Below the pieces are notes generated by a model. The model had not been told where the DNA came from. It did no database searches and saw nothing but the letters and a program-made list of their open reading frames with translations. The position numbers and the translations under genes were made by a program. This document shows positions 2,552-32,000 of a stretch of DNA of 32,000 nt, in pieces. The stretch comes from an uncultured Alphaproteobacteria bacterium. Lineage in GTDB: Bacteria; Pseudomonadota; Alphaproteobacteria; Rs-D84. Position 1 is the first letter of the stretch; each line of letters starts with the position of its first letter. Location of the stretch: positions 450,001 through 482,000 of the forward strand of contig OZ007020.1 of assembly GCA_963931495.1 (NCBI GenBank), given 5' to 3'.

Positions 2552-5056
2552 ATGTTAATAAAAAAATTTGTTCTGTCTGTAATGGGGATTTTTGCATTCG
2601 TTGGAACGCAAAATGCGTTTGCTGTGGCGCGAACAACAACGCAATCTGCAATCCAACAAGGAACAACGGTTCGTACAAAAATAGAAGCCGTCGGTTTATA
2701 TGACCAGGCCTGTTATGATGCGTATTTTGGATGTATGGACCAGTTTTGTATCATTGATAATGCAAATGGTGGCGCGTGCGGGTGCAGTGATGACAGTATT
2801 GAATATGAACAGGAATTTGCCGCGATTCAAGAAATTTTGGATGAAGCCACACGTTTGCGCACCGAAGAGGTTGAACGTGTTCAGGCCGGCGCAAATGCAG
2901 ATATTATATTTTCTGGGGAACGCAGATATGATGCAGACGGAAATATTATTGATGACGAAGAATTAAGTGCCGAAGAACAAAAGGCCCAAGAACGCGCAGA
3001 ATTGTTGGCGCTGTTTAATACCAGCATTTATGACGAACCAGAAGAAGATACAACAACCAGCATTGCGGATATGGTTGGTGACGAACTGTATCGCACGGCC
3101 GATGAATTGTGCGTGGCCCAGGTGCCGGATTCTTGTGCCGGGGATATTGATTTCTTGCGTCAATTATATTCGCGGCAAATTACGTCGGACTGTTTGGGGT
3201 ACAAGAATTCATTAACGGCGAAGCGGGCCGAAGCAGAACTGGATTTGGCAGATGCAGAAGCAGCAGTACGTGCGGCATTACAGGAAAGTTTTGAAAGTGC
3301 AAATAAATATGATTTGGGACAGTGTATGGTTGAATTCAAAAAGTGTATGCAGACCGAAGACGCATGTGGTGAAAACTGGGAAAACTGTGTCGCAACCATT
3401 GCCGCAGAAAATATGCAAAATAATGCCGCGGTCAGTACAGCTGGAACAGTTGCGGAATCTGTGGATACGTACAATATTACCGAATCAACAATGGACATAT
3501 TGAATACTAAACGTCCAATTTGTGAAAATGTTTTGGCCCAGTGTGTGGCTGTGCGTGATATGGTGTGGCCAAATTTCTTGAAAGAGGCCGCGCCCACAAT
3601 TCGGGTGGCGGAATTACAGGCAGAATCAAAATTCCGTCAGTCTTGTTTAACAACAATTTCTGAATGTATTACAACCGCGTGTCGCGATGATATTGCCGGC
3701 AAAGGCGTTGCCACCATGGATGCATGTTTGTCACGTCCGGAAATGGCGCGCAGTTTCTGCAAGGTTGAAATTGATCCGTGTGAACGTATGGAACCGCTGA
3801 TTTGGGGATATGTAGAAGACAAATTGGCGGCAATGCGTGTTGACGCATGTACACAAGAAGTCAAAGATTGCTTTACCGCCGACACGCGCTGTGGGGCAAA
3901 TTTTGAAAACTGTATTGGTATGGATTATGACTATATCCATGAAATGTGCCCAATTGACAGTCTGGTCGTGTGCAAGGCAAATAATCCGAATTTTTCCATG
4001 GACGATTTGGATTCTATGTTGATGGGATTGTATCTGAATATTGATAATGCAATGCTGGACCAGTGTCAAAACTTGGTTGACCAGAAAATGGCGGAAATTT
4101 GCGGCAGTACAACTGATTGTAACCGGTTTGCTGCGGATGATACAATTGGTACTGGTTCACTGCGGTCGCAGAAAGATGGCGATGTGTATCGGGTAACCGG
4201 AATGATTTCGTTCGGCAGTATTAAGATGGGTGACGCGTCTGGCCAAATGACAACATTAAATGCGGATGGTGATACCGTTAAACTGGGGCCTGGTGAAATT
4301 GGTGTTGGGGAATATATCGCAAAAATACGTGAACAAAATGCCGATGTTCCAAATGCGGATGCAATTATAAATACAATTGAAGAAGAATTGAATAATATCG
4401 CGGGGACAATTAATCGCACAATCGCGATGATAGAAGAAGATCCGGAAATTCAATATTGCGTCAGTGGACGCGACCTGTCGCAGATAACTGGTGATGATGG
4501 TGCCACGACCGAAGCGCGCTTTCCGAACCTGTTGAACCAGGTGAAAATGCAAATCGCGGTTTCTGCGTTGCGCCAGGCACAAGACAATTATAATAACAAA
4601 TTGAATACGGCGATTGCGGATGCAACCAAAAATGCATCTGCCGACATCGCGCAATACATGTGCCAGAAAATTGCAGAAAATGGCGGAAATATGCTTGCCA
4701 GTGATGCAATTGCACAGTCAACGTCGTTAAATGTTCCATATGCAATCAGTTATGATGTTGGTACAGGGTTGACCGCCGAAGACTTAACACGTGGTGGTGC
4801 CGGCGTTGTCCAGGCGGGTGGCATGACATTCAAAAATGAGGCATATTTAGGTGGCGGATCTGGACTGGAAGGCGATGGTATGACCAAAGAGGTGACAGCT
4901 GTCTTTAATCGTGATACGCGTACATGTCATATCTGTACCACTATAACGACACAAAATTGTGAAACAACCGGCAGCGTCAGTTGGTTCCACAATAACCGTA
5001 ATGTTAATTGTACAACGGAAACGTCTGGACCGGTTTGTGAAGATATTGTGATGTAG
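2552..5056 (+). CDS. secreted cysteine-rich coiled-coil protein (family unknown); paralogue of 332..2500
   Basis: A GGAGAGAG Shine-Dalgarno-like run lies just upstream of ATG 2552. The signal peptide is MLIKKFVLSVMGIFAFVGTQNAFA|VA. Its Cys blocks align with the upstream gene: ACYDAYFGCMDQFCIIDNANGGACGCS, NKYDLGQCMVEFKKCMQTEDACGENWENC, CENVLAQCVAVRDMV, QSCLTTISECITTAC. It ends ...SGPVCEDIVM, compared with CEDINM in the paralogue. Confidence 0.85.
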   Translation: MLIKKFVLSVMGIFAFVGTQNAFAVARTTTQSAIQQGTTVRTKIEAVGLYDQACYDAYFGCMDQFCIIDNANGGACGCSDDSIEYEQEFAAIQEILDEATRLRTEEVERVQAGANADIIFSGERRYDADGNIIDDEELSAEEQKAQERAELLALFNTSIYDEPEEDTTTSIADMVGDELYRTADELCVAQVPDSCAGDIDFLRQLYSRQITSDCLGYKNSLTAKRAEAELDLADAEAAVRAALQESFESANKYDLGQCMVEFKKCMQTEDACGENWENCVATIAAENMQNNAAVSTAGTVAESVDTYNITESTMDILNTKRPICENVLAQCVAVRDMVWPNFLKEAAPTIRVAELQAESKFRQSCLTTISECITTACRDDIAGKGVATMDACLSRPEMARSFCKVEIDPCERMEPLIWGYVEDKLAAMRVDACTQEVKDCFTADTRCGANFENCIGMDYDYIHEMCPIDSLVVCKANNPNFSMDDLDSMLMGLYLNIDNAMLDQCQNLVDQKMAEICGSTTDCNRFAADDTIGTGSLRSQKDGDVYRVTGMISFGSIKMGDASGQMTTLNADGDTVKLGPGEIGVGEYIAKIREQNADVPNADAIINTIEEELNNIAGTINRTIAMIEEDPEIQYCVSGRDLSQITGDDGATTEARFPNLLNQVKMQIAVSALRQAQDNYNNKLNTAIADATKNASADIAQYMCQKIAENGGNMLASDAIAQSTSLNVPYAISYDVGTGLTAEDLTRGGAGVVQAGGMTFKNEAYLGGGSGLEGDGMTKEVTAVFNRDTRTCHICTTITTQNCETTGSVSWFHNNRNVNCTTETSGPVCEDIVM

Positions 5057-5167: not shown

Positions 5168-5539
5168 ATGAAAAAAATTTCTGTGATTGCGGCCTTGGGC
5201 ACAATTGCCAGCGGGGCGGCATTTGCTGATTTCCAGCCGAATAATCCGGCGCCGGTTGGTGGCGGTTTTGTTGGCGGTAATGAAATAGTTGTCACGGTAA
5301 ATCAAGTCAAAGAAATGCGCGATGATACACCGGTGATTATCCAGGGACGTATCGTTCAACGTATGGGCGATGAAAAATATTTGTTTGAAGATTCAACAGG
5401 TTCGGTAACAGTTGAAATTGACCGCAAGGATTGGCGTGGCCAGACAGTAACACCGTCTGATACAGTTAAACTGTATGGCGAAGTTGATTCGGGCATGTTC
5501 AAAACCGAAGTTGATGTTGATTATGTCCAGAAATTGTAA
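5168..5539 (+). CDS. YgiW/YdeI-family periplasmic OB-fold (BOF) protein
   Basis: The start is moved to ATG 5168, which has an AAAAGGGG SD upstream and a signal peptide MKKISVIAALGTIASGAAFA. The mature sequence ...VKEMRDDTPVIIQGRIVQRMGDEKYLFEDSTGSVTVEIDRKDWRGQTVTPSDTVKLYGEVD...VDVDYVQKL is collinear with E. coli YgiW (...SLRDDTWVTLRGNIVERISDDLYVFKDASGTINVDIDHKRWNGVTVTPKDTVEIQGEVD...). Confidence 0.85.
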   Translation: MKKISVIAALGTIASGAAFADFQPNNPAPVGGGFVGGNEIVVTVNQVKEMRDDTPVIIQGRIVQRMGDEKYLFEDSTGSVTVEIDRKDWRGQTVTPSDTVKLYGEVDSGMFKTEVDVDYVQKL

Positions 5540-5540
5540 T

Positions 5541-5570
5541 AAAAAAATCGCCCAGTTGGGCGATTTTTTT
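5541..5570 (+). terminator. rho-independent terminator; member of the ATCGCCCA-TGGGCGAT hairpin family
   Basis: AAAAAAATCGCCCAGTTGGGCGATTTTTTT: an A-run, a GC-rich palindrome and a T-run directly after the stop at 5539. Confidence 0.7.
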
Positions 5571-5575
5571 ATGGT

Positions 5576-5604
5576 TTGCATTTATACTGAATAAATTGTA
5601 TAAT
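5576..5604 (+). promoter_or_regulatory. strong sigma70-like promoter of small Cys-rich paralogue A
   Basis: TTGCAT (5576-5581), a 17-nt spacer, then TATAAT (5599-5604). The same TTGCAT-17-TATAAT arrangement recurs at 31650-31678. Confidence 0.6.
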
Positions 5605-5610
5605 TCATAT

Positions 5611-5812
5611 CGCAACAATGTGTTATTGTTGTGTGGCTTCACATCCACTGCAAAGCATCGCGATATGCGATGAAAAATTCTCCAACCAATCCGGGTTGGA
5701 GGGGTCTTGAATATATATTGAATAAAGACCGCAATTCTTTGCAGTTGTTGTGAACCTCCAACCACTTGAATTTATTTCCGGTGGTTTTTTGTTGCAAAAA
5801 TGGGGGTCAAAG
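5611..5812 (+). promoter_or_regulatory. structured 5' leader, copy A; candidate riboswitch or attenuator-like element
   Basis: There are four pairing segments: seg1 CTCCAACC (5680-5687), seg2 GGTTGGAGG (5694-5702), seg3 CCTCCAACC (5755-5763) and seg4 GTGGTT plus a T-run (5781-5790). Hairpin P2 is GGTCTT[GAATATATATTGAATA]AAGACC (5703-5730). Hairpin P3 is 5731-5742. The SD TGGGGG lies at 5801-5806. See the findings for the model. Confidence 0.5.
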
Positions 5813-6388
5813 ATGAAAAAGATATTTGTCGCCATTGTCGCGTGCATGATCTGCAACGTTGGTTGGGGTATTAATTGGGTTTGTGAAATAGACCAGTGTG
5901 ATAAAGGAACTTGGGCGCTAGATGATAATCCTTATAATAACCCATGTATGGTTTGCCCAGCCAACACATATCAAGATGGCTGTATTAATCTTGGTGAAGA
6001 GTGTACCCCATGTCCCGCGGGGACCGGCACGATTGGTGATACGGCGGCCCATCACGACAGTATTGATGATTGTATTCCGATGGAAACAGAAGAAATATCT
6101 TGTAATCCGGGATATTATTTACCCGCAAACAGTCAACAATGTACGCAATGTCCACGTAATCATTATTGTCCCGGTGGGACGTTTACAGAAACGACATCTG
6201 ATTCTGGGATAACACAATGTCCTGATAATATGTATTCACCACTGGGGTCAGATAGTGCGGATGATTGTGGGCGCGTGTTACATATTGGCGAATATATTTT
6301 ATATCTGCGCACGGCAAAACTGACCGTGCCATCACTGAATGTCCAGATTGGCAACACGATATATTACGGTGATATGTTCCCCGCGTAA
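5813..6388 (+). CDS. small secreted Cys-rich protein, paralogue A (ephrin-receptor-like/GCC2-GCC3-type CxxCP repeats)
   Basis: The start is moved from 5750 to ATG 5813, because the longer ORF would translate the leader hairpins. The signal peptide is MKKIFVAIVACMICNVGWG. The mature part has about 14 Cys in motifs CMVCPANTYQDG, CTPCPAGTGTIG, CTQCPRNHYCPGG and QCPDNMYSPLGSDSADDC. The C-terminal tail is CGRVLHIGEYILYLRTAKLTVPSLNVQIGNTIYYGDMFPA. Confidence 0.85.
   Translation: MKKIFVAIVACMICNVGWGINWVCEIDQCDKGTWALDDNPYNNPCMVCPANTYQDGCINLGEECTPCPAGTGTIGDTAAHHDSIDDCIPMETEEISCNPGYYLPANSQQCTQCPRNHYCPGGTFTETTSDSGITQCPDNMYSPLGSDSADDCGRVLHIGEYILYLRTAKLTVPSLNVQIGNTIYYGDMFPA
6002..6388 (+). repeat. left arm of a 387-bp inverted repeat (partner 14656..15042)
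   Basis: From TGTACCCCATGTCCCGCGGGG to the stop codon, the DNA is near-identical to the reverse complement of 14656..15042, with only a handful of substitutions by eye. Identity ends exactly at the stop codon. Confidence 0.85.
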
Positions 6389-14655: not shown

Positions 14656-15042
14656 TTACGCGGGGAACATATCACCGTAATATATCGTATTGCCAATCTG
14701 GACATTCAGTGATGGCACGGTCAGTTTTGCCGTGCGCAGATATAAAATATATTCGCCAATATGTAACACGCGCCCACAATCATCCGCACTATCTGATCCC
14801 AGTGGTGAATACATATTATCGGGACATTGTGTTATCCCAGAATCTGCGGATGATTCTGTAAACGTCCCACCGGGACAATAATGATTACGTGGACATTGTG
14901 TGCATTGTTGACTGTTTGCGGGTAAATAATATCCCGGATTACAAGATATTTCTTCTATTTCCATCGGAATACAGTCATCAATACTGTCGTGATCGGCCGC
15001 CGTATCACCAATCGTGCCGGTCCCCGCGGGACACGGGGTACA
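14656..15042 (-). repeat. right arm of the 387-bp inverted repeat (partner 6002..6388)
   Basis: The reverse complement is near-identical to 6002..6388 and encodes CTPCPAGTGTIGDTAADHDSIDDC...GNTIYYGDMFPA. Confidence 0.85.
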
Positions 15043-15249
15043 AGAAAAGTATGTACCACTTTCTTCTTGATATGTATTCGTTGGGCAAGTGCAACACATA
15101 TATGCGCCTTCGCCATCTGCTGGCGATGGTGCATTATACATTCCCGCCTGGCAATTCGTCCCCCCCGGCCTGGCGGGTGGCATGCAAATGCCCCATGCTG
15201 AATTATATGCTGTACACACGACAACAATGGCGATAAATATCTTTTTCAT
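14656..15249 (-). CDS. small secreted Cys-rich protein, paralogue B
   Basis: The start is moved from 15327 to ATG 15249, giving signal peptide MKKIFIAIVVVCTAYNSAWG. The N-terminal roughly 55 mature residues (ICMPPARPGGTNCQAGMYNAPSPADGEGAYMCCTCPTNTYQEESGTYFS) are unrelated to copy A. The C-terminal 128 aa are almost identical to copy A. Confidence 0.85.
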   Translation of the reverse strand: MKKIFIAIVVVCTAYNSAWGICMPPARPGGTNCQAGMYNAPSPADGEGAYMCCTCPTNTYQEESGTYFSCTPCPAGTGTIGDTAADHDSIDDCIPMEIEEISCNPGYYLPANSQQCTQCPRNHYCPGGTFTESSADSGITQCPDNMYSPLGSDSADDCGRVLHIGEYILYLRTAKLTVPSLNVQIGNTIYYGDMFPA

Positions 15250-15440
15250 CTTTAACCCCCATTTTCGTAACAAAAAACCACCGGAAATAAATTCAAGTGG
15301 TTGGAGGTTAGCAACTATCAAATACAATAGTGTCGTTTATTCAATATATTCACGAACCCTCCAACCGCAAGGTTGGAGTATGCGTATTTGCGAGGTTGCT
15401 ACACCCCGTATCAGAAACTTTCTGATACGTTCGTATTATA
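15250..15440 (-). promoter_or_regulatory. structured 5' leader copy B, including a TATAAT -10 box
   Basis: On the - strand: TATAAT (15440-15435), seg1 CTCCAACC (15378-15371), seg2 GGTTGGAGG (15366-15358), seg3 CCTCCAACC (15307-15299), then the AACCAC/GTGGTT hairpin and T-run (15302-15272). The P2 loop GAATATATTGAATA is conserved, while the P2 and P3 stems differ from copy A but still pair. Confidence 0.5.
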
Positions 15441-19861: not shown

Positions 19862-20045
19862 ATCGGTATACAGTAGCAATGAAATCCGCAACTGTAAAGC
19901 AGAATTTATATTTGGCCCATTGGGTGACCAAAAAGTGCTTTTTTATAAAAATCAAGAACTTTATTTATCGGGATATGGTGCAGGGCGACTTTTTAACGTA
20001 TGCGATTTATGGTAAAATATGTATTACATAGGGCCAGACGGAGAG

Positions 20046-21146
20046 ATGGAAAAATACCTGAACCAGATTTTTGCCGGGGATTGTGTGGACGTTATGCGCG
20101 GCATCCCAGATGCGTCGGTTGATGCCGTGTTCGCAGATGCGCCATATAATCTGCAATTGGGGGAAAAAACATTGTATCGGCCCGAAGATCAAACAGCTGC
20201 CCGTGCGGTCCGCGATGCATGGGACAGTTTTGACAGCCCAGCGGCCTATGATGAATTTACACGTGCGTGGATGACCGAATGTCGCCGTGTGTTAAAGCCT
20301 GATGGGGCAATGTGGGTTATCGGCAGTTATCATAATATTTTCCGTGTTGGTGCCATTTTACAAGATCTGGGATTCTGGATTTTGAATGATATTGTATGGG
20401 TCAAGACCAATCCAATGCCGAATTTTCGCGGTACGCGTTTTACAAATGCGCACGAAACGCTGATCTGGGCAACGCCGCGTAAAACAGGCAAGTATACGTT
20501 TAATTATGAAACAATGAAAAAGTTAAATGGTGGCAAACAGATGCGTTCTGATTGGGATATTAATATATGTCTGGGCGAAGAACGCGTCAAAGATGCAAAT
20601 GGTAAAAGTTTGCATAATACGCAAAAGCCGATGGATTTGTTGCGCCGTGTGATTTTGTCTTCTACAAAGCAGGGTGATGTTATTCTGGACCCGTTTATGG
20701 GCAGTGGCACCACCGCCGCCGCGGCCAAAGAATTGGGGCGTAATTTTATAGGTATAGAACGCGAAGAATCATACGTCGCGGCGGCGCGGACCCGTGTTGA
20801 TGCGGTGCGTGCGGTGGATTTGTCGGATATAGAGGTTGCAATCCCGAAGCGTGCGGAAATTCGTGTGGCGTTCAAGGAACTGATTGATGCAGGACTGTTG
20901 TATGTTGGCCAGACGTTGGTCAGTCCGCGCGGCGAACGCGTCATGATTACGCGTGACGGACAATTGGCACATTCACTGCATGGCAAGGCGTCAATTCATG
21001 TTATGGCGGCGCGTTTGCAACATTGTGTCAGTTTTAATGGATGGGACTATTGGTCCGCGGAAAAGCGCGATGGGTCATTGGTGCCGATTGACGAATTGCG
21101 CAAATATCTGCGTGGAATAAAGCGTGATATAAAGCAGGCGGCGTAA
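20046..21146 (+). CDS. ccrM: CcrM-family N6-adenine DNA methyltransferase (beta class; GANTC specificity inferred by homology)
   Basis: Collinear with Caulobacter CcrM over the full length. Shared blocks include ...NLQLG..., WVIGSYHNIFRVGAILQDLGFWILNDIVW.K.NPMPNF.GTRF.NAHETLIWA, QMRSDW, HPTQKP-like HNTQKP, and VILDPFMGSGTTAAAAKELGRNFIGIERE. The CcrM-specific C-terminal domain is also present. ATG 20019 is an alternative start. Confidence 0.92.
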   Translation: MEKYLNQIFAGDCVDVMRGIPDASVDAVFADAPYNLQLGEKTLYRPEDQTAARAVRDAWDSFDSPAAYDEFTRAWMTECRRVLKPDGAMWVIGSYHNIFRVGAILQDLGFWILNDIVWVKTNPMPNFRGTRFTNAHETLIWATPRKTGKYTFNYETMKKLNGGKQMRSDWDINICLGEERVKDANGKSLHNTQKPMDLLRRVILSSTKQGDVILDPFMGSGTTAAAAKELGRNFIGIEREESYVAAARTRVDAVRAVDLSDIEVAIPKRAEIRVAFKELIDAGLLYVGQTLVSPRGERVMITRDGQLAHSLHGKASIHVMAARLQHCVSFNGWDYWSAEKRDGSLVPIDELRKYLRGIKRDIKQAA

Positions 21147-21293: not shown

Positions 21294-24200
21294 ATGTCGC
21301 AGATTTTCGGGATTTTTAGAAATAGAAATATTGCTAAAATAACCGTTTACTTTTTTTTCTCTTTACTACTTTTGCTGTGCATTGTGCCTGATGGTTATGG
21401 GGCGGGTTATACATGCTCTGCGTCGTCCAAGAAATATACATCGTGCAAATCCGGGTATTACTTAAATGGTACCGGTGCCGGTAACAGTTGTTCAACATGC
21501 AGCAGTCTGGGTTATACATCATCTGCGAATGGTAATTCCAACGGTGCGGCGGCGTGTTATAAATCATGCACCAAAGCCTGTACGCGACAGACATGTCCAT
21601 CGTCAGCATACAGTTGCAGTCATGGCAGCACATCAACATCTGGGACACAGTATTATGGTGGTTCGTGCAGTGCCCCATCTTCAACATGTTCATTGACGAT
21701 AAACAGTTGCAAATCGGGATATTATAAGAACGGCAACAGCTGTGCAACATGCAGCAGTTTGGGTTATACGTCATCTGCGAATGGTAATTCCAACGGTGCG
21801 GCGGCGTGTTATAAATCATGTACCCGTGCGTGTACGCGACAAACATGTCCGTCAAATGCGACCTGTACCCATGGCAGTACATCAACCAGTGGTACCCAAT
21901 ATTACGGTGGTTCGTGCAGTGCGGCGTCATCCACATGTTCAATCAGCATATCTTGTAACTCAGGATATTACAAAAGCGGCAGCAGCTGTCCGGCCTGTAC
22001 GAGTGTCAGTGCGACGGACTTATCACAATCATGTTCACGCAATCCAACCAGCACGGAATTAAGTAACGCACATGCATACGCAGGTACAATCAGTGGTGCG
22101 AAGCAACAGTGTACTGGTAAACATACCGGTGGTGCGGGCGGAACAGCTGGCTCTGGGTCGTGCACCGGGTGCAGCAGTTGGGGTACATGCAGTGGCGGCA
22201 CATTAACCATTACATCATGTTCGGCGGGATATTATAAAGATGGTAATAGTTGCAAATCCTGTCCATCGGGGTATACATCTGCGAACGGTACAACGGGTGG
22301 CATTGGTTCGTGTTATATTAATGTATCTGCGGGTAATTATATTAAGGCAGCAAACAGTTCAACACAATCAACGTGTACGGCGGGGTATTGGAATCCGGCA
22401 CATACCGTGTACTATGGCAACACGTCTAGTTGTAATAAGTGCACAGGCACAACATATTCAGATACTGATGGCGCCAGCAGTTGCAAGCAATGCCCAACCG
22501 CAACAGAGTATGCCGACATAATAACAAGTTATTGGTATTGGTCAGAAGATGATATTCATGACACTATTGGTGGCTGTCGTGCCGAGTTTGATGAATCAGA
22601 TTCCAAGGGTTCGTACAATTACAGCTGTGCATATAAAAATGGTGATTATGGCGTTGCCGGTGGTGGTACCGGTACATGTATGGCGACGAAACCAAATTCT
22701 TGTGCTGCGACATATTATTGGCCGGGTGGAGATTCTAATATTTGGGCGGGCAATCGTGCGGAATTGTTAACGCAAATGTGTTCCAGTGTTGGCAAGGGAT
22801 ATTGGTCGGCGGCCGGTTCTTTGACCCGCAGCCAGTGTCCAGCGAACTATCGCGATGGCGCGGCGGCGGGCAGTCAGGCGGGTTGCAAGACCAGTTGTGC
22901 GGCCGGGACATATGTAAAGACAGCAAATGCAGCGTGTACATCTGTTGGCACGGGATATTACCGTGCTGCGCATACGGTAAGTTACGGCAGCACCAGTACC
23001 CGCAGCCAGTGTCCAGCGAACTATCGCGATGGCGCGGCGGCGGGCAGTCAGGCGGGTTGCAAGACCAGTTGTGCGGCGGGAACATACGTTGCGACAGCGA
23101 ATGCAGCGTGTACGTCGGTTGGTACGGGATATTATCGTGCGGCGCATACGGTAAGTTACGGCAGCACCAGTACCCGCAGCCAGTGTCCAGCGAACTATCG
23201 CGATGGCGCAGCGGCGGGCAGTCAAAATAACTGTATTGGTATATTTGAAAAAACAGGTGGCCAGAATAATCCGACCAAACCGACGGGTTGTGCAACGATG
23301 GAATACGCATCATCGTGTACACCGCCAACGTGTGAATATCAAAAGAACTATGCGGGTACTGTTGTTAAAGATTGTACGCCCGGGAATTGTACCAAGGCGA
23401 TAACAAAACTGACGGCAAATGCCGACAGATATGTGAATGGCACAACGTCTTGTCCGGCGTGCAGCAGTTACAGCAGTACGTACACCAAGTCAGATGGCGG
23501 CAGTATTACGTATAACTCTTGTTATATTACCAGAAGCAAGACGGGCAGCCAGGTTAACGGCAGTACGCCCAGTGGGTGTGCCAGTGTGACGGCATGGTAC
23601 GCATGTACGCCCGGCACGTGCACATACAAGGACTATTTGGGTCAGACTGGTGAAACATGCACGCCATCAAACTGTACTAAGTCGCCAAAGACGGTTACGG
23701 CAAAGGAGAATTACTATGTCAGTGGTGCAACATGTCCGGCGTGCAGCAGTTACAGCAGTACATACACCAAGTCAGATGGCGGCAGTATTACGTATAACTC
23801 TTGTTATATTACCAGAAGCAAGACGGGCAGCCAGGTTAACGGCAGTACGCCCAGTGGGTGTGCCAGTGTAACGGCGTGGAATGCATGTACGCCCGGCAAA
23901 TGTACGTACAAAGACTATTTGGGTCAGACAGGTGAAACCTGTACCCCATCAAACTGCACGAAAACGCCAAAGACAGTTAGGGCCAAAGAGAATTACTACG
24001 TCAGTGGTACGTCTTGTCCGGCATGCAGCAGTTACAGCAGTACATATACCAAGTCAGATGGTGGTTCAATAAGCAGTGCATATTGTTACCGAACAGCCAC
24101 CAAGACGGGCAGTCAGGTTAATGGCAGTACGCCCAGTGGGTGTGCCAGTGTAACGGCGTGGAATGCATGCACCCCCGGCACATGTACGTACAAGGACTAT

Positions 24201-25589
24201 GCCAGTGCGACGGATACAACATGTACACCGTCAAACTGCACAAAAACGCCAAAGACGGTTACGGCAAAGGAGAATTACTATGTCAGTGGTACGTCTTGTC
24301 CGGCGTGCAGCAGTTACAGCAGTACATACACCAAGTCAGATGGCGGTTCAATAAGCAGTGCATATTGTTACCGAACAGCCACCAAGACGGGCAGCCAGGT
24401 TAATGGCAGTACGCCCAGTGGGTGTGCCAGTGTAACGGCATGGAATGCATGCACGCCCGGCACATGTACGTACAAGGACTATGCCAGTGCGACGGATACA
24501 ACATGTACACCGTCAAACTGCACAAAAACGCCAAAGACGGTTACGGCAAAGGAGAATTACTACGTCAGTGGCACGTCCTGTCCAACATGCCCAACGGGGT
24601 ATCCGAACTCGGATGGTGGTACGGGTGGTGTAACGGTGTGTTACAGTAATACAAAATCCCGTGCATGGACCGGCAGCCAGGTTAACGGCAGTACGCCCAG
24701 TGGGTGTGCCAGTGTAACAGCGTGGAATGCATGTTCCAAGCCGGCATGTAGTTATGTTGCGTATTCCAACAGTGCTGGTACGGGCGATGGCGAAATAAAA
24801 AGTGGATGCAGCAGTAATAGCGCCAGTTGTACCAAGACCCCAAAGACAGTTACGGCCAAGGAGAATTACTATGTCAGTGGCACGTCCTGTCCAACATGCC
24901 CAACGGGGTATCCGAACTCGGATGGTGGTACGGGTGGTGTAACGGTGTGTTACAGTAATACAAAATCCCGTGCATGGACCGGCAGCCAGGTTAACGGCAG
25001 TACGCCCAGTGGATGTGCCAGTGTAACAGCGTGGAATGCATGTTCCAAGCCGGCATGTAGTTATGTTGCGTATTCCAACAGTGCTGGTACGGGCGATGGC
25101 ACAATAAAGAGTGGTTGCAGCAGTAATAGCGCCAGTTGCACAAAAAACCCAAAGACGGTTACGGCCAAGGAGAATTACTATGTCAGTGGCACGTCCTGTC
25201 CGACATGTCCGACGGGGTATCCGAACTCGGCGGGTGGGAACATTGGTCAAAGCATGTGCTATAAGACATGTGAAGACATAGACATTACCGGTGGGACGAA
25301 TGTACCGACCAGTGGCACGGCGTATTATGGCAACAGTTGCACATATACGACGGTTTGTGACGATGGGTATAATCTGACGGGGACAAACACGTGCAGCCAG
25401 TTATGTACACTGGGTGTGACCAGTCTGCGTACGGGTAATGGTGTGACGATACCGTTGTACAGTTCGGCATTATCCACACCATCGTTAAACATTGGTACTG
25501 GTGGTGGTGTATGCTATGGCATATTGGAAAGTGGTGCGGGAACACTGAACATCCAATATGACGGCAAAACGTATCACGCGGTGGATTAA
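21294..25589 (+). CDS. giant secreted Cys/Ser/Thr/Gly-rich repeat protein (CxxC-GYY modules; VSP-, furin- or GCC2-GCC3-like)
   Basis: A single uninterrupted 1431-codon ORF with a GGAGGG SD. The N-terminal hydrophobic signal or anchor is ...ITVYFFFSLLLLLCIVPDGYG|AGYTC. It is modular throughout: CKSGYY.NG.SC.TCSS, CKSCPSGYTSANG, SQCPANYRDGAAAGSQAGCKTSCAAGTYV, SCPACSSYSSTYTKSDGG, SCPTCPTGYPNSDGG. The C-terminus shares the LRT...PSLN(I/V)...YG module with the small paralogues. Confidence 0.85.
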   Translation: MSQIFGIFRNRNIAKITVYFFFSLLLLLCIVPDGYGAGYTCSASSKKYTSCKSGYYLNGTGAGNSCSTCSSLGYTSSANGNSNGAAACYKSCTKACTRQTCPSSAYSCSHGSTSTSGTQYYGGSCSAPSSTCSLTINSCKSGYYKNGNSCATCSSLGYTSSANGNSNGAAACYKSCTRACTRQTCPSNATCTHGSTSTSGTQYYGGSCSAASSTCSISISCNSGYYKSGSSCPACTSVSATDLSQSCSRNPTSTELSNAHAYAGTISGAKQQCTGKHTGGAGGTAGSGSCTGCSSWGTCSGGTLTITSCSAGYYKDGNSCKSCPSGYTSANGTTGGIGSCYINVSAGNYIKAANSSTQSTCTAGYWNPAHTVYYGNTSSCNKCTGTTYSDTDGASSCKQCPTATEYADIITSYWYWSEDDIHDTIGGCRAEFDESDSKGSYNYSCAYKNGDYGVAGGGTGTCMATKPNSCAATYYWPGGDSNIWAGNRAELLTQMCSSVGKGYWSAAGSLTRSQCPANYRDGAAAGSQAGCKTSCAAGTYVKTANAACTSVGTGYYRAAHTVSYGSTSTRSQCPANYRDGAAAGSQAGCKTSCAAGTYVATANAACTSVGTGYYRAAHTVSYGSTSTRSQCPANYRDGAAAGSQNNCIGIFEKTGGQNNPTKPTGCATMEYASSCTPPTCEYQKNYAGTVVKDCTPGNCTKAITKLTANADRYVNGTTSCPACSSYSSTYTKSDGGSITYNSCYITRSKTGSQVNGSTPSGCASVTAWYACTPGTCTYKDYLGQTGETCTPSNCTKSPKTVTAKENYYVSGATCPACSSYSSTYTKSDGGSITYNSCYITRSKTGSQVNGSTPSGCASVTAWNACTPGKCTYKDYLGQTGETCTPSNCTKTPKTVRAKENYYVSGTSCPACSSYSSTYTKSDGGSISSAYCYRTATKTGSQVNGSTPSGCASVTAWNACTPGTCTYKDYASATDTTCTPSNCTKTPKTVTAKENYYVSGTSCPACSSYSSTYTKSDGGSISSAYCYRTATKTGSQVNGSTPSGCASVTAWNACTPGTCTYKDYASATDTTCTPSNCTKTPKTVTAKENYYVSGTSCPTCPTGYPNSDGGTGGVTVCYSNTKSRAWTGSQVNGSTPSGCASVTAWNACSKPACSYVAYSNSAGTGDGEIKSGCSSNSASCTKTPKTVTAKENYYVSGTSCPTCPTGYPNSDGGTGGVTVCYSNTKSRAWTGSQVNGSTPSGCASVTAWNACSKPACSYVAYSNSAGTGDGTIKSGCSSNSASCTKNPKTVTAKENYYVSGTSCPTCPTGYPNSAGGNIGQSMCYKTCEDIDITGGTNVPTSGTAYYGNSCTYTTVCDDGYNLTGTNTCSQLCTLGVTSLRTGNGVTIPLYSSALSTPSLNIGTGGGVCYGILESGAGTLNIQYDGKTYHAVD
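21444..21953 (+). repeat. in-frame tandem repeat, two units of about 252-264 bp
   Basis: TGCAGCAGT(C/T)TGGGTTATAC...AATGGTAATTCCAACGGTGCGGCGGCGTGTTATAAATCATG occurs at 21498 and 21750. The units start at TGCAAATC(C)GGG, at 21444 and 21708. Confidence 0.8.
22827..23230 (+). repeat. in-frame tandem repeat, 174-bp period, about 2.3 units
   Basis: The anchor CGCAGCCAGTGTCCAGCGAACTATCGCGATGGCGC is at 22827, 23001 and 23175. The units encode SQCPANYRDGAAAGSQAGCKTSCAAGTYV.TANAACTSVGTGYYRAAHTVSYGSTSTR. Confidence 0.85.
23385..25230 (+). repeat. in-frame tandem repeat array with 282-bp (x4-5) then 309-bp (x2) periods
   Basis: The anchor AGTACGCCCAGTGG is at 23562, 23844, 24126, 24408, 24690 and 24999, giving spacings of 282, 282, 282, 282 and 309. 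Neighbouring units such as 24126-24330 and 24408-24612 differ at only a few positions. Confidence 0.9.
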
Positions 25590-28865: not shown

Positions 28866-28950
28866 TGGTGGCCCTGGTCGGACTTGAACCGACACTCCTT
28901 GCGGAACTTGATTTTGAGTCAAGCGCGTCTACCAATTCCGCCACGGGGCC
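28866..28950 (-). tRNA. tRNA-Leu (anticodon CAA), class II with a long variable arm and encoded CCA
   Basis: The reverse complement is GGCCCCG TG GCGGAATTGGTAGACGC G CTTGA CTCAAAA TCAAG TTCCGCAAGGAGT GTCGG TTCAAGT CCGAC CAGGGCC A CCA. The cloverleaf was folded by hand. The anticodon loop is CT-CAA-AA. There is one C6:A67 mismatch in the acceptor stem. Confidence 0.85.
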
Positions 28951-31649: not shown

Positions 31650-31678
31650 TTGCATTTATATTTAATAAATTGTATAAT
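31650..31678 (+). promoter_or_regulatory. strong sigma70-like promoter of paralogue C
   Basis: TTGCAT (31650-31655), a 17-nt spacer, then TATAAT (31673-31678). The block GTTTGCATTTATA..AATAAATTGTATAATTC is shared with 5574-5606. Confidence 0.6.
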
Positions 31679-31684
31679 TCCAGT

Positions 31685-31885
31685 TGCAGTGATGTGTTGT
31701 TGCTGCGGGGCGTCACAACCTCTTATCAAGTGTCTGAGTCAAGACAAAAATATATCTCCAACCATATGGTTGGAGGGACCCTGGAATATATTGAATACAG
31801 GTCGCAATTCTTGATAATTGTTGTGAACCTCCAACCACTTGAAATTATTTCCGGTGGTTTTTTGTTGCAAAAATGGGGGTTAAAG
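31685..31885 (+). promoter_or_regulatory. structured 5' leader copy C
   Basis: seg1 CTCCAACC (31756-31763), seg2 GGTTGGAGG (31768-31776), P2 GACC(C)TG[GAATATATTGAATA]CAGGTC, P3 CAATT-CTTGAT-AATTG, seg3 CCTCCAACC (31828-31836), AACCAC/GTGGTT plus T-run (31833-31864), and SD TGGGGG (31874-31879). Confidence 0.5.
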
Positions 31886-32000
31886 ATGAAAAAGATATTT
31901 ATCGCCATTGTCGCGTGCATGATCTGCAATGTTGGTTGGGATAAACAACTGATAGAACAAGAGAAGCAAAAAGACTTGAAAAACAATTATGACGCTGTTA
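31886..32000 (+). CDS. third member driven by the same leader and signal peptide (5' part only; runs off the window)
   Basis: ATG 31886 gives MKKIFIAIVACMICNVGWDKQLIEQEKQKDLKNNYDAV. The first 18 residues are almost identical to paralogue A, and the sequence then diverges completely. It is not in the ORF track because there is no stop in the window. Confidence 0.7.
   Translation, partial: MKKIFIAIVACMICNVGWDKQLIEQEKQKDLKNNYDAV

Follow-up and report, generated by a model that had tools for sequence, protein, structure and literature searches.

A stretch of 32,000 nucleotides (nt) from contig OZ007020.1 (assembly GCA_963931495.1, positions 450,001-482,000 of the forward strand; in the following termed the window, with all coordinates given as window positions), which derives from an uncultured Alphaproteobacteria bacterium (GTDB lineage Pseudomonadota; Alphaproteobacteria; Rs-D84), carries three copies of a structured leader RNA of about 190 nt. 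With a probability of roughly 70%, this leader is considered to be a cis-acting attenuator which by default keeps the gene some 50 nt downstream switched off and which serves a regulon that, in Rs-D84 Alphaproteobacteria, comprises small XRE-type regulators as well as secreted or surface proteins. This reading builds on the fold, the alternative complementarity of its strands, the promoter, the terminator and the constant placement in front of genes, each of which is documented by the sequences themselves, and among regulatory leader RNAs this one is a strong candidate for a new class. The original prediction, which centred on copy A, had described a promoter, four pairing segments (seg1 to seg4), a hairpin P2, a U-tract and a Shine-Dalgarno sequence (SD), all of which are present on the sequence. 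Likewise, the two further copies which it had reported proved to be real, as a covariance model run with filters off identified exactly three copies within the window, i.e., copy A at 5632-5791(+) with 112 bits, copy B at 15271-15408(-) with 107 bits and copy C at 31706-31864(+) with 118 bits. Overall identity among these is 77%, whereby the differences sit in the helices, and their folding stability relative to shuffled sequence corresponds to z = -6.3, -4.9 and -3.8.

When folded alone, 89 of 116 non-redundant homologs give the same architecture. From 5' to 3' it comprises the -10 box, hairpin H0, the 5' strand of hairpin H1 (GGGG), strand a, the 3' strand of H1 (CCCN), strand b, hairpin H5, an A-rich junction (j4), seg1, a variable loop, seg2 followed by a G, P2, the 5' strand of hairpin H4 (CUAU or CAAU), strand b', the 3' strand of H4 (AUAG or AUUG), strand a', a single A, seg3, the terminator hairpin and its U-tract, and a spacer of 15-35 nt leads from the terminator to the SD and start codon. 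Strands a and b pair with a' and b', respectively, and the two resulting long-range helices close a multiloop around H5, seg1:seg2 and P2. In copy A, all parts of which lie on the + strand, reading of the sequence and a consensus scan place the promoter at 5576-5604 (TTGCAT 5576-5581, a 17-nt spacer, TATAAT 5599-5604), shortly after the terminator which ends the upstream gene (5539-5572). Minimum free energy (MFE) folds identify H0, with a GUGUU loop, at 5611-5633, and transcription presumably starts just 5' of it. Covariation then defines H1 (5633-5648; GUGG 5633-5636 with CCAC 5645-5648, strand a residing inside the loop), the optional H5 (5656-5672, CAUCGC...GCGAUG), seg1 (CUCCAACC, 5680-5687, preceded by U5679) and P2 (5703-5730), which combines a variable stem with a conserved loop (GAAUAU..UUGAAUAA; read as GAAUAUAUAUUGAAUAA in copy A), while covariation and mutual information together define a:a' (5639-5645 with 5747-5753) and b:b' (5647-5655 with 5736-5744). 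Junction j4 (5673-5679, AAAAAUU) was assigned from an A-rich consensus that is kept in two alignments (A3 and A4), seg2 (GGUUGGAGG, 5694-5702) from covariation and from variant copies, and H4 (5732-5747) from the complementarity of CAAU at 5732-5735 with GUUG at 5744-5747, with b' forming its loop. Seg3 (CCUCCAACC, 5755-5763) overlaps the start of the terminator (5760-5793, supported by covariation and the U-run), whose 3' strand GUGGUU (5781-5786) continues into UUUUUUGUU and which is followed by UGGGGG at 5801-5806, containing the SD (GGGGG, 5802-5806), and the start codon ATG (5813-5815). The GGGGG motif was also considered as a special feature and rejected, as other genes of the window use it too. 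Compared with this layout, the initial description of the leader stands for the parts it named and had missed H0, H1, H5, a:a' and b:b'; the local hairpin it called P3 exists but is better placed as H4, and the three-way junction it proposed does not correspond to the MFE fold, which is the multiloop closed by a:a' and b:b', but was kept, with seg2:seg3, P2 and P3, as the proposed ON state.

A -10 box located mostly 68-92 nt (mode about 75) 5' of seg1 and upstream of H0 reads TATAAT in 56 and TAAAAT in 21 of the 116 homologs, and among 115 homologs H0 is a hairpin of about 8 base pairs (bp) which occurs in the same place with unrelated sequence, GUGUU being its commonest loop, and with a mean MFE of -10.0 kcal/mol versus -4.4 kcal/mol for shuffles. 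A plain MAFFT alignment of the 116 sequences, evaluated with RNAalifold, showed no helices beyond H0, a:a', H5, seg1:seg2 and the terminator, and misaligned b/b' and P2. Because MAFFT failed to align the variable strands, a gap-free, N-padded seed of 21 sequences was assembled from parsed constrained MFE folds and used to build covariance model R1, and all covariation statistics were taken from the subsequent Infernal realignment (A4, 115 distinct copies), the seed being excluded as their basis. In A4, 97.6% of the cells of the nested structure are paired, as compared to 72.7% after shuffling and 30.6-47.9% with slid partners, and 32 of 37 pairs show changes on both sides (21.4 shuffled, 13-20 with slid partners). 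The covariation score amounts to 0.572 versus 0.142 for shuffles, 0 of 500 of which reach the observed value (a count that is not a probability), and at most 0.060 for slid partners. These figures have to be read against the facts that the alignment had been made to fit the structure of the model, that the seed was padded with N by the author and that the shuffle control ignores phylogeny, but the effect sizes are very large despite these caveats. A wider alignment lacking covariation had been named as one outcome that would refute the original prediction; as covariation is massive, the alternative that the conservation merely reflects recent duplication fails.

Resolved by helix, a:a' (7 pairs, 99.4% paired) and b:b' (9 pairs, 93.9% paired) are compensatory at every pair (7/7 and 9/9), the latter holding the top mutual-information pairs and the former ranging among them. 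Seg1:seg2 is paired to 99.9% over 8 pairs, and H5 (4 pairs, 97.2%) as well as P2 (3 modelled pairs, 97.0%) covary throughout. H5 is missing from copy B and several homologs (L023, L060, L097 and L083) and is therefore dispensable for the core fold. In an independent mutual-information scan the pairs of the model rank top, and the only extra tertiary pair to emerge (columns 7 and 248) lengthens a:a' by one. Amid these covarying stems, sequence is conserved in the P2 loop (GAAUAUAUUGAAUAA, with some homologs carrying an inserted hairpin in it), in the A-rich j4, in the GGG following seg2, in the GUC/GAC stem of H5 and in the GUGUU loop of H0. A conserved multi-helix domain with invariant loop and junction nucleotides, as delineated here, is of the kind expected for the aptamer of a riboswitch.

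The second line of evidence concerns seg2, for which exclusive pairing with either seg1 or seg3 had been predicted. Both partners are borne out by the alignment, as seg2:seg3, a continuous 9-bp helix devoid of bulges, is paired to 99.2% and shows compensatory changes at 4 of its 9 pairs. The most telling cases are rare diverged copies which change seg1, seg2 and seg3 in concert, namely L095:3054-3204 (seg1 UCCCGACC, seg2 GGUCGGGA, seg3 CUCCCGACC), L014:6046-6200 (seg1 CUUCUGC, seg2 GCAGGAGG, seg3 CCUCCUGCC), L075:510-693 (seg1 CUCCUGA, seg2 GUCAGGAGG, seg3 CCUCCUGACC) and, with a related variant, L103:4314-4502. In five further copies the ninth pair is altered from G:C to U:A (seg2 GGAGU with seg3 ACUCC), a change that was read from the sequences and not from the pair table, the covariance model gapping this seg2 column. 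Each variant triplet shares its contig with a canonical copy, and complementarity is therefore kept within the molecule and not imposed by a common trans partner; on the same grounds, a small RNA (sRNA) or protein recognizing seg1 or seg3 by sequence was judged unlikely. Taken at the level of sequence, seg2 is able to pair with seg1 or with seg3, and since it pairs with one partner at a time, yet both pairings are selected, two conformations follow.

Seg3 in turn overlaps the 5' strand of the terminator (AACC plus RC), and here too the predicted use of its 3' half in a hairpin with a U-tract was substantiated. The terminator stem (6 pairs) is paired to 97.4%, one of its pairs being A:U in 62 and G:C in 45 sequences, and a U-run follows the hairpin in 105 of 108 copies. 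An initial caveat on the terminator, concerning its short stem and a loop of 13-15 nt, was alleviated by the finding that the loop forms additional pairs and that the stem covaries across homologs. A hairpin with U-tract, an antiterminator strand and, with seg1, a competing anti-antiterminator are thus discernible in the sequence, as would be expected for an attenuator operating through an intrinsic terminator. According to nearest-neighbour energies, the fold combining seg1:seg2 with the terminator is the MFE structure in 111 of 112 sequences, from which OFF is derived as the default state. For RNA that has been read through, pairing between the SD and the CCUCC of seg3 is predicted in 77 of 91 copies, and the MFE fold of copy A contains this pairing. 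The proposed SD complementarity of seg3 is thereby upheld at the level of modelling, though SD masking adds no independent evidence, because any SD is complementary to CCUCC.

A second set of alternative helices may exist around the long-range ones. H1 (columns 2-5 with 14-17) is paired to 86.8%, pair 3-16 being G:C in 67, A:U in 20 and G:U in 19 sequences, and copy A carries a U:A variant in this hairpin. For H4, a perfectly complementary 4-mer is found in 107 of 110 homologs (permuted control 61 +/- 4, maximum 77), with CUAU/AUAG (62) and CAAU/AUUG (35) as its main variants and CUAC/GUAG, CUAA/UUAG and GGUC/GACU as further ones. As the loop of H1 equals strand a and that of H4 equals strand b', both hairpins may represent local alternatives to a:a' and b:b', the closed form with its long-range helices being favoured by 7.3 +/- 3.2 kcal/mol; H1, H4 and seg2:seg3 would in that case form the ON state together.

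The position of the leader relative to genes constitutes the third line of evidence. In 91 of 108 copies (84%) seg3 is followed, at a distance of 34-70 nt and on the same strand, by an SD and an open reading frame (ORF) of at least 45 amino acids (aa), as compared to 6% at random positions. There is no room for a promoter between leader and ORF, and these genes are thus transcribed only through the terminator; the upstream genes end in terminators of their own. The secreted Cys-rich protein announced downstream of copy A was verified as a protein of 191 aa (5813-6388, + strand) with a signal peptide and Ephrin_rec_like repeats (PF07699, E 1.4e-7), for which 58 homologs were found, nearly all of them known solely from metagenome assemblies. 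It is one representative of a broader set, as in many species the leader heads genes for secreted proteins and XRE regulators and not the Cys-rich gene alone. Among 105 downstream proteins, 65 (about 62%) look secreted, including a Cys-rich family of 25 members (with both complete window genes), proteins with Flg_new repeats and secreted peptides of about 65 aa, and around 30 are small and non-secreted, including XRE-type helix-turn-helix (HTH) proteins of about 75 and 115 aa. The commonest non-secreted gene behind the leader encodes a 16-member family of about 60 aa (MxIGxEIExIR...YQLIMFI; e.g., L001:938-1120, L035:7556-7750(-) and L096:781-966), which gave no Pfam match at E<=0.1 and weak similarity (E 0.002) to the N-terminus of the XRE-type HTH structure PDB 5v5t; it is a candidate for an autoregulated factor. 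An EcoRI-type adenine methylase (L054) and an EamA transporter represent single cases.

Several points weigh against the attenuator reading. Within 260 nt, 16 of 121 pattern-matching copies lack a qualifying ORF, and some loci carry tandem units without an intervening gene (L082 and L050); such copies would be compatible with an RNA that stands alone. The stem of the terminator is short and rich in A:U pairs, forcing seg2:seg3, i.e., the ON state, costs 11.9 +/- 5.3 kcal/mol (nested pairs only), and H1 and H4 could engage in loop-to-strand pseudoknots with a:a' and b:b' within one compact fold. The downstream genes, secreted proteins and XRE regulators, suggest no ligand, and all sequences derive from metagenome-assembled genomes (MAGs).

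The first two of these points feed the best-surviving alternative, according to which the element is a gene for a trans-acting sRNA of about 190 nt, whose ACCUCC, single-stranded in the terminated form and located immediately 5' of the terminator hairpin, would serve as an anti-SD seed repressing messenger RNAs (mRNAs) with strong SDs, as sRNAs with C-rich seeds do, while the downstream gene would be a target or a passenger. Each unit does possess its own promoter and terminator, CCUCC is unpaired within the leader in the OFF fold, and copies are numerous per genome, with three in 32 kb here. A stand-alone RNA is, however, at odds with the 84% of copies that have an SD and ORF downstream at a fixed distance, with genes that can be transcribed only via the terminator since no promoter fits into the gap, and with the triple covariation of seg1, seg2 and seg3, which would be purposeless for a pure sRNA. 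The sRNA explanation was hence rated as unlikely, and a dual role as attenuator and sRNA is possible. The tandem arrays themselves, L082:5564-6131(-) with three and L050:3415-3762(+) with two units, carry a -10 box in each unit and degenerate terminators in the upstream units; they could represent RNAs in their own right or duplicates undergoing decay.

Ranked slightly lower, and likewise improbable, is a constitutive leader which does not switch at all, whose fixed, pseudoknotted fold would stabilize the mRNA, set a constant low read-through or insulate the gene, and in which the complementarity of seg3 to seg2 would be a mere by-product of the likeness of seg3 to seg1. The dominance of the OFF fold and the far lower stability of the ON fold suit this idea. 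According to a steric argument of our own, which draws on an analogy to kissing loops, H1 is compatible with a:a', and H4 together with a full b:b' would be strained yet possible, so that both hairpins could coexist with the long-range helices as pseudoknots. Moreover, hairpins at the 5' terminus, of which H0 is an example, are classic stabilizers of mRNA. What a non-switching leader leaves unaccounted for is that seg3 stays fully complementary to seg2 even where all three segments change, that the ninth pair turns from G:C to U:A in five copies, which is hard to explain without selection for seg2:seg3, and that regulated attenuators are as a standard built with an overlap like the one between seg3 and the terminator strand.

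The distribution of the family bears on the question of whether it spreads as a repeat. One genome per species (596 Gb) was scanned with the pattern CTCCAACC N2-10 GGTTGGAG N36-66 CCTCCAACC, for which less than one chance match is expected by our own estimate, and at least 120 loci were obtained; the covariance model identified 115 distinct copies in 100 sources, 13 of them outside the exact search pattern. Among the matches listed, nearly all are from MAGs of gut or rumen origin that carry the labels Candidatus Enterousia, Alphaproteobacteria or 'Rickettsiales', and single assemblies contribute several each. The element is hence a widespread family, for which local duplication is not the explanation. 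Enterousia belongs to the order Rs-D84, most genomes being smaller than 1 Mb and devoid of the tricarboxylic acid cycle and of respiratory chains (PMC12306168). Based on 13 extra copies in about 0.78 Mb of flanking sequence and on the three in the 32-kb window, about 10-30 copies per genome of about 0.9 Mb are estimated, a figure which clustering of copies may bias. A full-length copy with 80 bits and an XRE gene downstream was also observed on a contig labelled Muribaculaceae from a Bacteroidota bin (L025:3530-3688(-)), which is probably a mis-binned Rs-D84 contig rather than a case of horizontal transfer. Two Lewinellaceae MAG loci (L024:117-182 and L071:3464-3537) were rejected as members, as a palindromic tandem repeat (..CCTCCAACCTTCCGGTTGGAGAACCCGTA..), unrelated to the RNA family, matches the DNA pattern there by chance. 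No copy was detected in 2.9 million viral contigs, and the window is ordinary core chromosome (encoding S6, PGK, RNase HII, NrdR, ClpP, ClpX, a ClpB-like ATPase, L28, RecO and a DsbA-like protein), so that a phage origin was dismissed for lack of evidence. A dispersed repeat or mobile promoter-terminator cassette, akin to miniature inverted-repeat transposable elements or repetitive extragenic palindromic (REP) elements and conserved owing to recent spread, is very improbable, since, although copies are many per genome, the 3' parts of the window copies and the promoters of copies A and C are near-identical and REP-like palindromes adjoin some copies, the copies within a genome differ at most helix positions with pairing kept, which bears the signature of prolonged divergence under selection for structure, reading of the copies revealed no terminal inverted repeats (a dedicated repeat search of the flanks was not made), viral contigs are free of the element and its position relative to start codons is fixed. 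The palindromes in question are GC-rich (e.g., GCCGTCATACCGCCGCAGGGCGGTATCTGG) and located just 3' of the leader terminator in L008, L027, L040 and L080, lying between terminator and gene in L027 and L080, with no gene within 260 nt in L008 and L040.

For the attenuator, we infer the following ON/OFF logic. During transcription seg1:seg2 would form first, within the multiloop closed by a:a' and b:b', and yield the OFF default, in which seg3 is left free, AACC(R)C pairs with G(Y)GGUU and RNA polymerase stops at the U-tract, leaving an RNA of about 190 nt; in those transcripts that are read through, the CCUCC of seg3 would cover the SD. An effector acting on the conserved 5' domain would allow seg2 to capture seg3, whereby the terminator would be lost and the SD exposed, and the local hairpins H1 and H4 would replace or coexist with the long-range helices. 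Because the segments co-vary within single molecules while canonical copies share their contigs, the effector should not read the segment sequence, and the P2 loop, the A-rich junction, H5 and the H0 loop would be its likely sites within the 5' domain. A model based on leader-peptide attenuation of the trp/his type was rejected, as no ATG column upstream of seg1 is common to at least 8 of the 115 sequences; the ORFs present there are not conserved. As to its nature, the effector is perhaps a small molecule, ion or second messenger, in which case the leader would be a true riboswitch, and only marginally less probably a protein, the remainder falling to a physical cue or to no switch at all. 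A riboswitch for a global signal would fit, by analogy, the complexity of the RNA, its conserved loop and junction nucleotides and its many copies before heterogeneous genes; a protein factor restricted to the lineage is about as likely. The more far-reaching proposal of an undescribed riboswitch class, responding to a small molecule, ion or second messenger and serving as master switch of the surface-protein and XRE regulon in the reduced-genome gut Alphaproteobacteria of Rs-D84 (an estimated 10-30 transcription units per genome of about 0.9 Mb), with control at both transcription and translation and with both conformers covarying, is advanced tentatively and at less than even odds.

A relay of terminator, antiterminator and anti-antiterminator is a classic type of mechanism, the novelty residing in the RNA family, in its architecture and in its regulon. 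At the gathering thresholds of Rfam 15 the only match in the whole window is a transfer RNA (tRNA) of 82 nt with a long variable arm (28869-28950(-)), the leader being unmatched, 18 homologous loci gave tRNAs and RNase P only, and at E<=10 copy A and L007 returned chance matches far below threshold, in agreement with the novelty originally claimed. In the literature on Enterousia, Rs-D84, RF32 and structured-RNA catalogues, as far as covered by a search that was not exhaustive, the RNA is undescribed, and the segment sequences are absent from the first 200 of 408 supplementary files of a human-microbiome structured-RNA catalogue (PMC8040213). The S-box/SAM-I, T-box and pyr/PyrR leaders share with the present one the four-segment relay, in which a common strand (here seg2) has two identical pairing partners to choose from, the overlap of the terminator 5' strand with the antiterminator partner and the location in a 5' leader with its own promoter, and in the case of PyrR also the presence of regulators among the regulated genes. 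They differ in that here the sensing domain is a multiloop which two long-range helices close, a local hairpin competing or forming a pseudoknot with each of them, that the three switching segments are almost invariant and that there is no Rfam match; for the T-box this holds at E<=10, and seg2:seg3 lacks the bulge. Riboswitches for cyclic di-GMP (GEMM-I and GEMM-II) resemble the leader in their many copies per genome before mixed genes, often for surface or secreted proteins, but neither RF01051 nor RF01786 matches at E<=10, and helices and conserved nucleotides are unlike. As proposed for the leader, control by GEMM riboswitches in Clostridioides and Geobacter is frequently terminator-based and leaves short terminated transcripts. 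Multicopy C-rich anti-SD sRNAs (alphaproteobacterial 'cuckoo'/alpha-r14-type, RsaE, csRNAs) likewise occur in several copies per genome with CCUCC-type motifs and their own promoter and terminator, whereas here one CCUCC lies in a stem that is conserved while the second acts as the switch strand, no Rfam sRNA matches and the RNA keeps a constant distance of about 50 nt to a downstream gene whose transcription has to pass the leader terminator. Finally, leaders which are terminated constitutively and depend on antitermination factors (the '6S' RNA of lambda, PR'-tR', with Q as well as put and EAR RNAs) are reminiscent in that a strong promoter drives a leader of about 190 nt which terminates ahead of the regulated genes, but those systems act processively on long operons and without covarying internal alternative pairing, whereas the present unit precedes the start of a single adjacent gene and has its antiterminator inside the RNA.

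The two other window copies follow the layout of copy A. Copy B (15247-15440(-)) lacks H5 and comprises the -10 box TATAAT (15440-15435), H0 (about 15429-15408), seg1 (15378-15371), seg2 (15366-15358), P2 (15357-15332), H4 (15330-15315), seg3 (15307-15299), the terminator (15302-15269), the SD (15260-15256) and ATG (15249-15247). Copy C (31650-31888(+)) comprises TTGCAT (31650-31655), TATAAT (31673-31678), H0 (31686-31706), seg1 (31756-31763), seg2 (31768-31776), P2 (31777-31803), H4 (31805-31820), seg3 (31828-31836), the terminator (31833-31866), the SD (31875-31879) and ATG (31886-31888). Between seg3 and roughly nucleotide 30 of the coding sequence (signal peptide MKKIF..), the three copies show few or no differences (5755-5840, 15222-15307(-) and 31828-31913), and the Cys-rich proteins encoded at 5813-6388 and 14656-15249(-) differ in their N-terminal halves while being about 95% identical by eye in their C-terminal halves; as proteins and leaders are thus mosaic, gene conversion or recombination among paralogs is suggested. 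On the antisense strand, an intrinsic terminator is scored in copies A and C (5680-5701(-) and 31756-31775(-)), where the seg2/seg1 hairpin is followed by the complementary sequence of j4, and the leader element could hence stop antisense transcription too. Elsewhere in the window, an N6/N4 DNA methylase with a RAMA domain is encoded at 20019-21146, and the ORFs 266-2500, 2552-5056 and 21294-25589 (744, 834 and 1431 aa), two of which lie directly upstream of copy A, are without a significant Pfam domain.

As a complex conserved RNA that precedes many genes for secreted proteins and small regulators, the leader is probably a central regulatory device of the Rs-D84 lineage. It provides a clean new orphan switch, which comes along with a large covarying alignment, an unambiguous terminator-based platform, natural compensatory mutants of three strands and a possible second pair of alternative helices, and for which the search for a ligand or factor is feasible in vitro without culturing the organism. 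For MAGs with mostly unannotated proteins it furthermore serves as an annotation marker that flags promoters, transcription starts and the regulon, and it may reveal how Rs-D84 and Candidatus Enterousia, being uncultured gut bacteria, respond to their host or partner.

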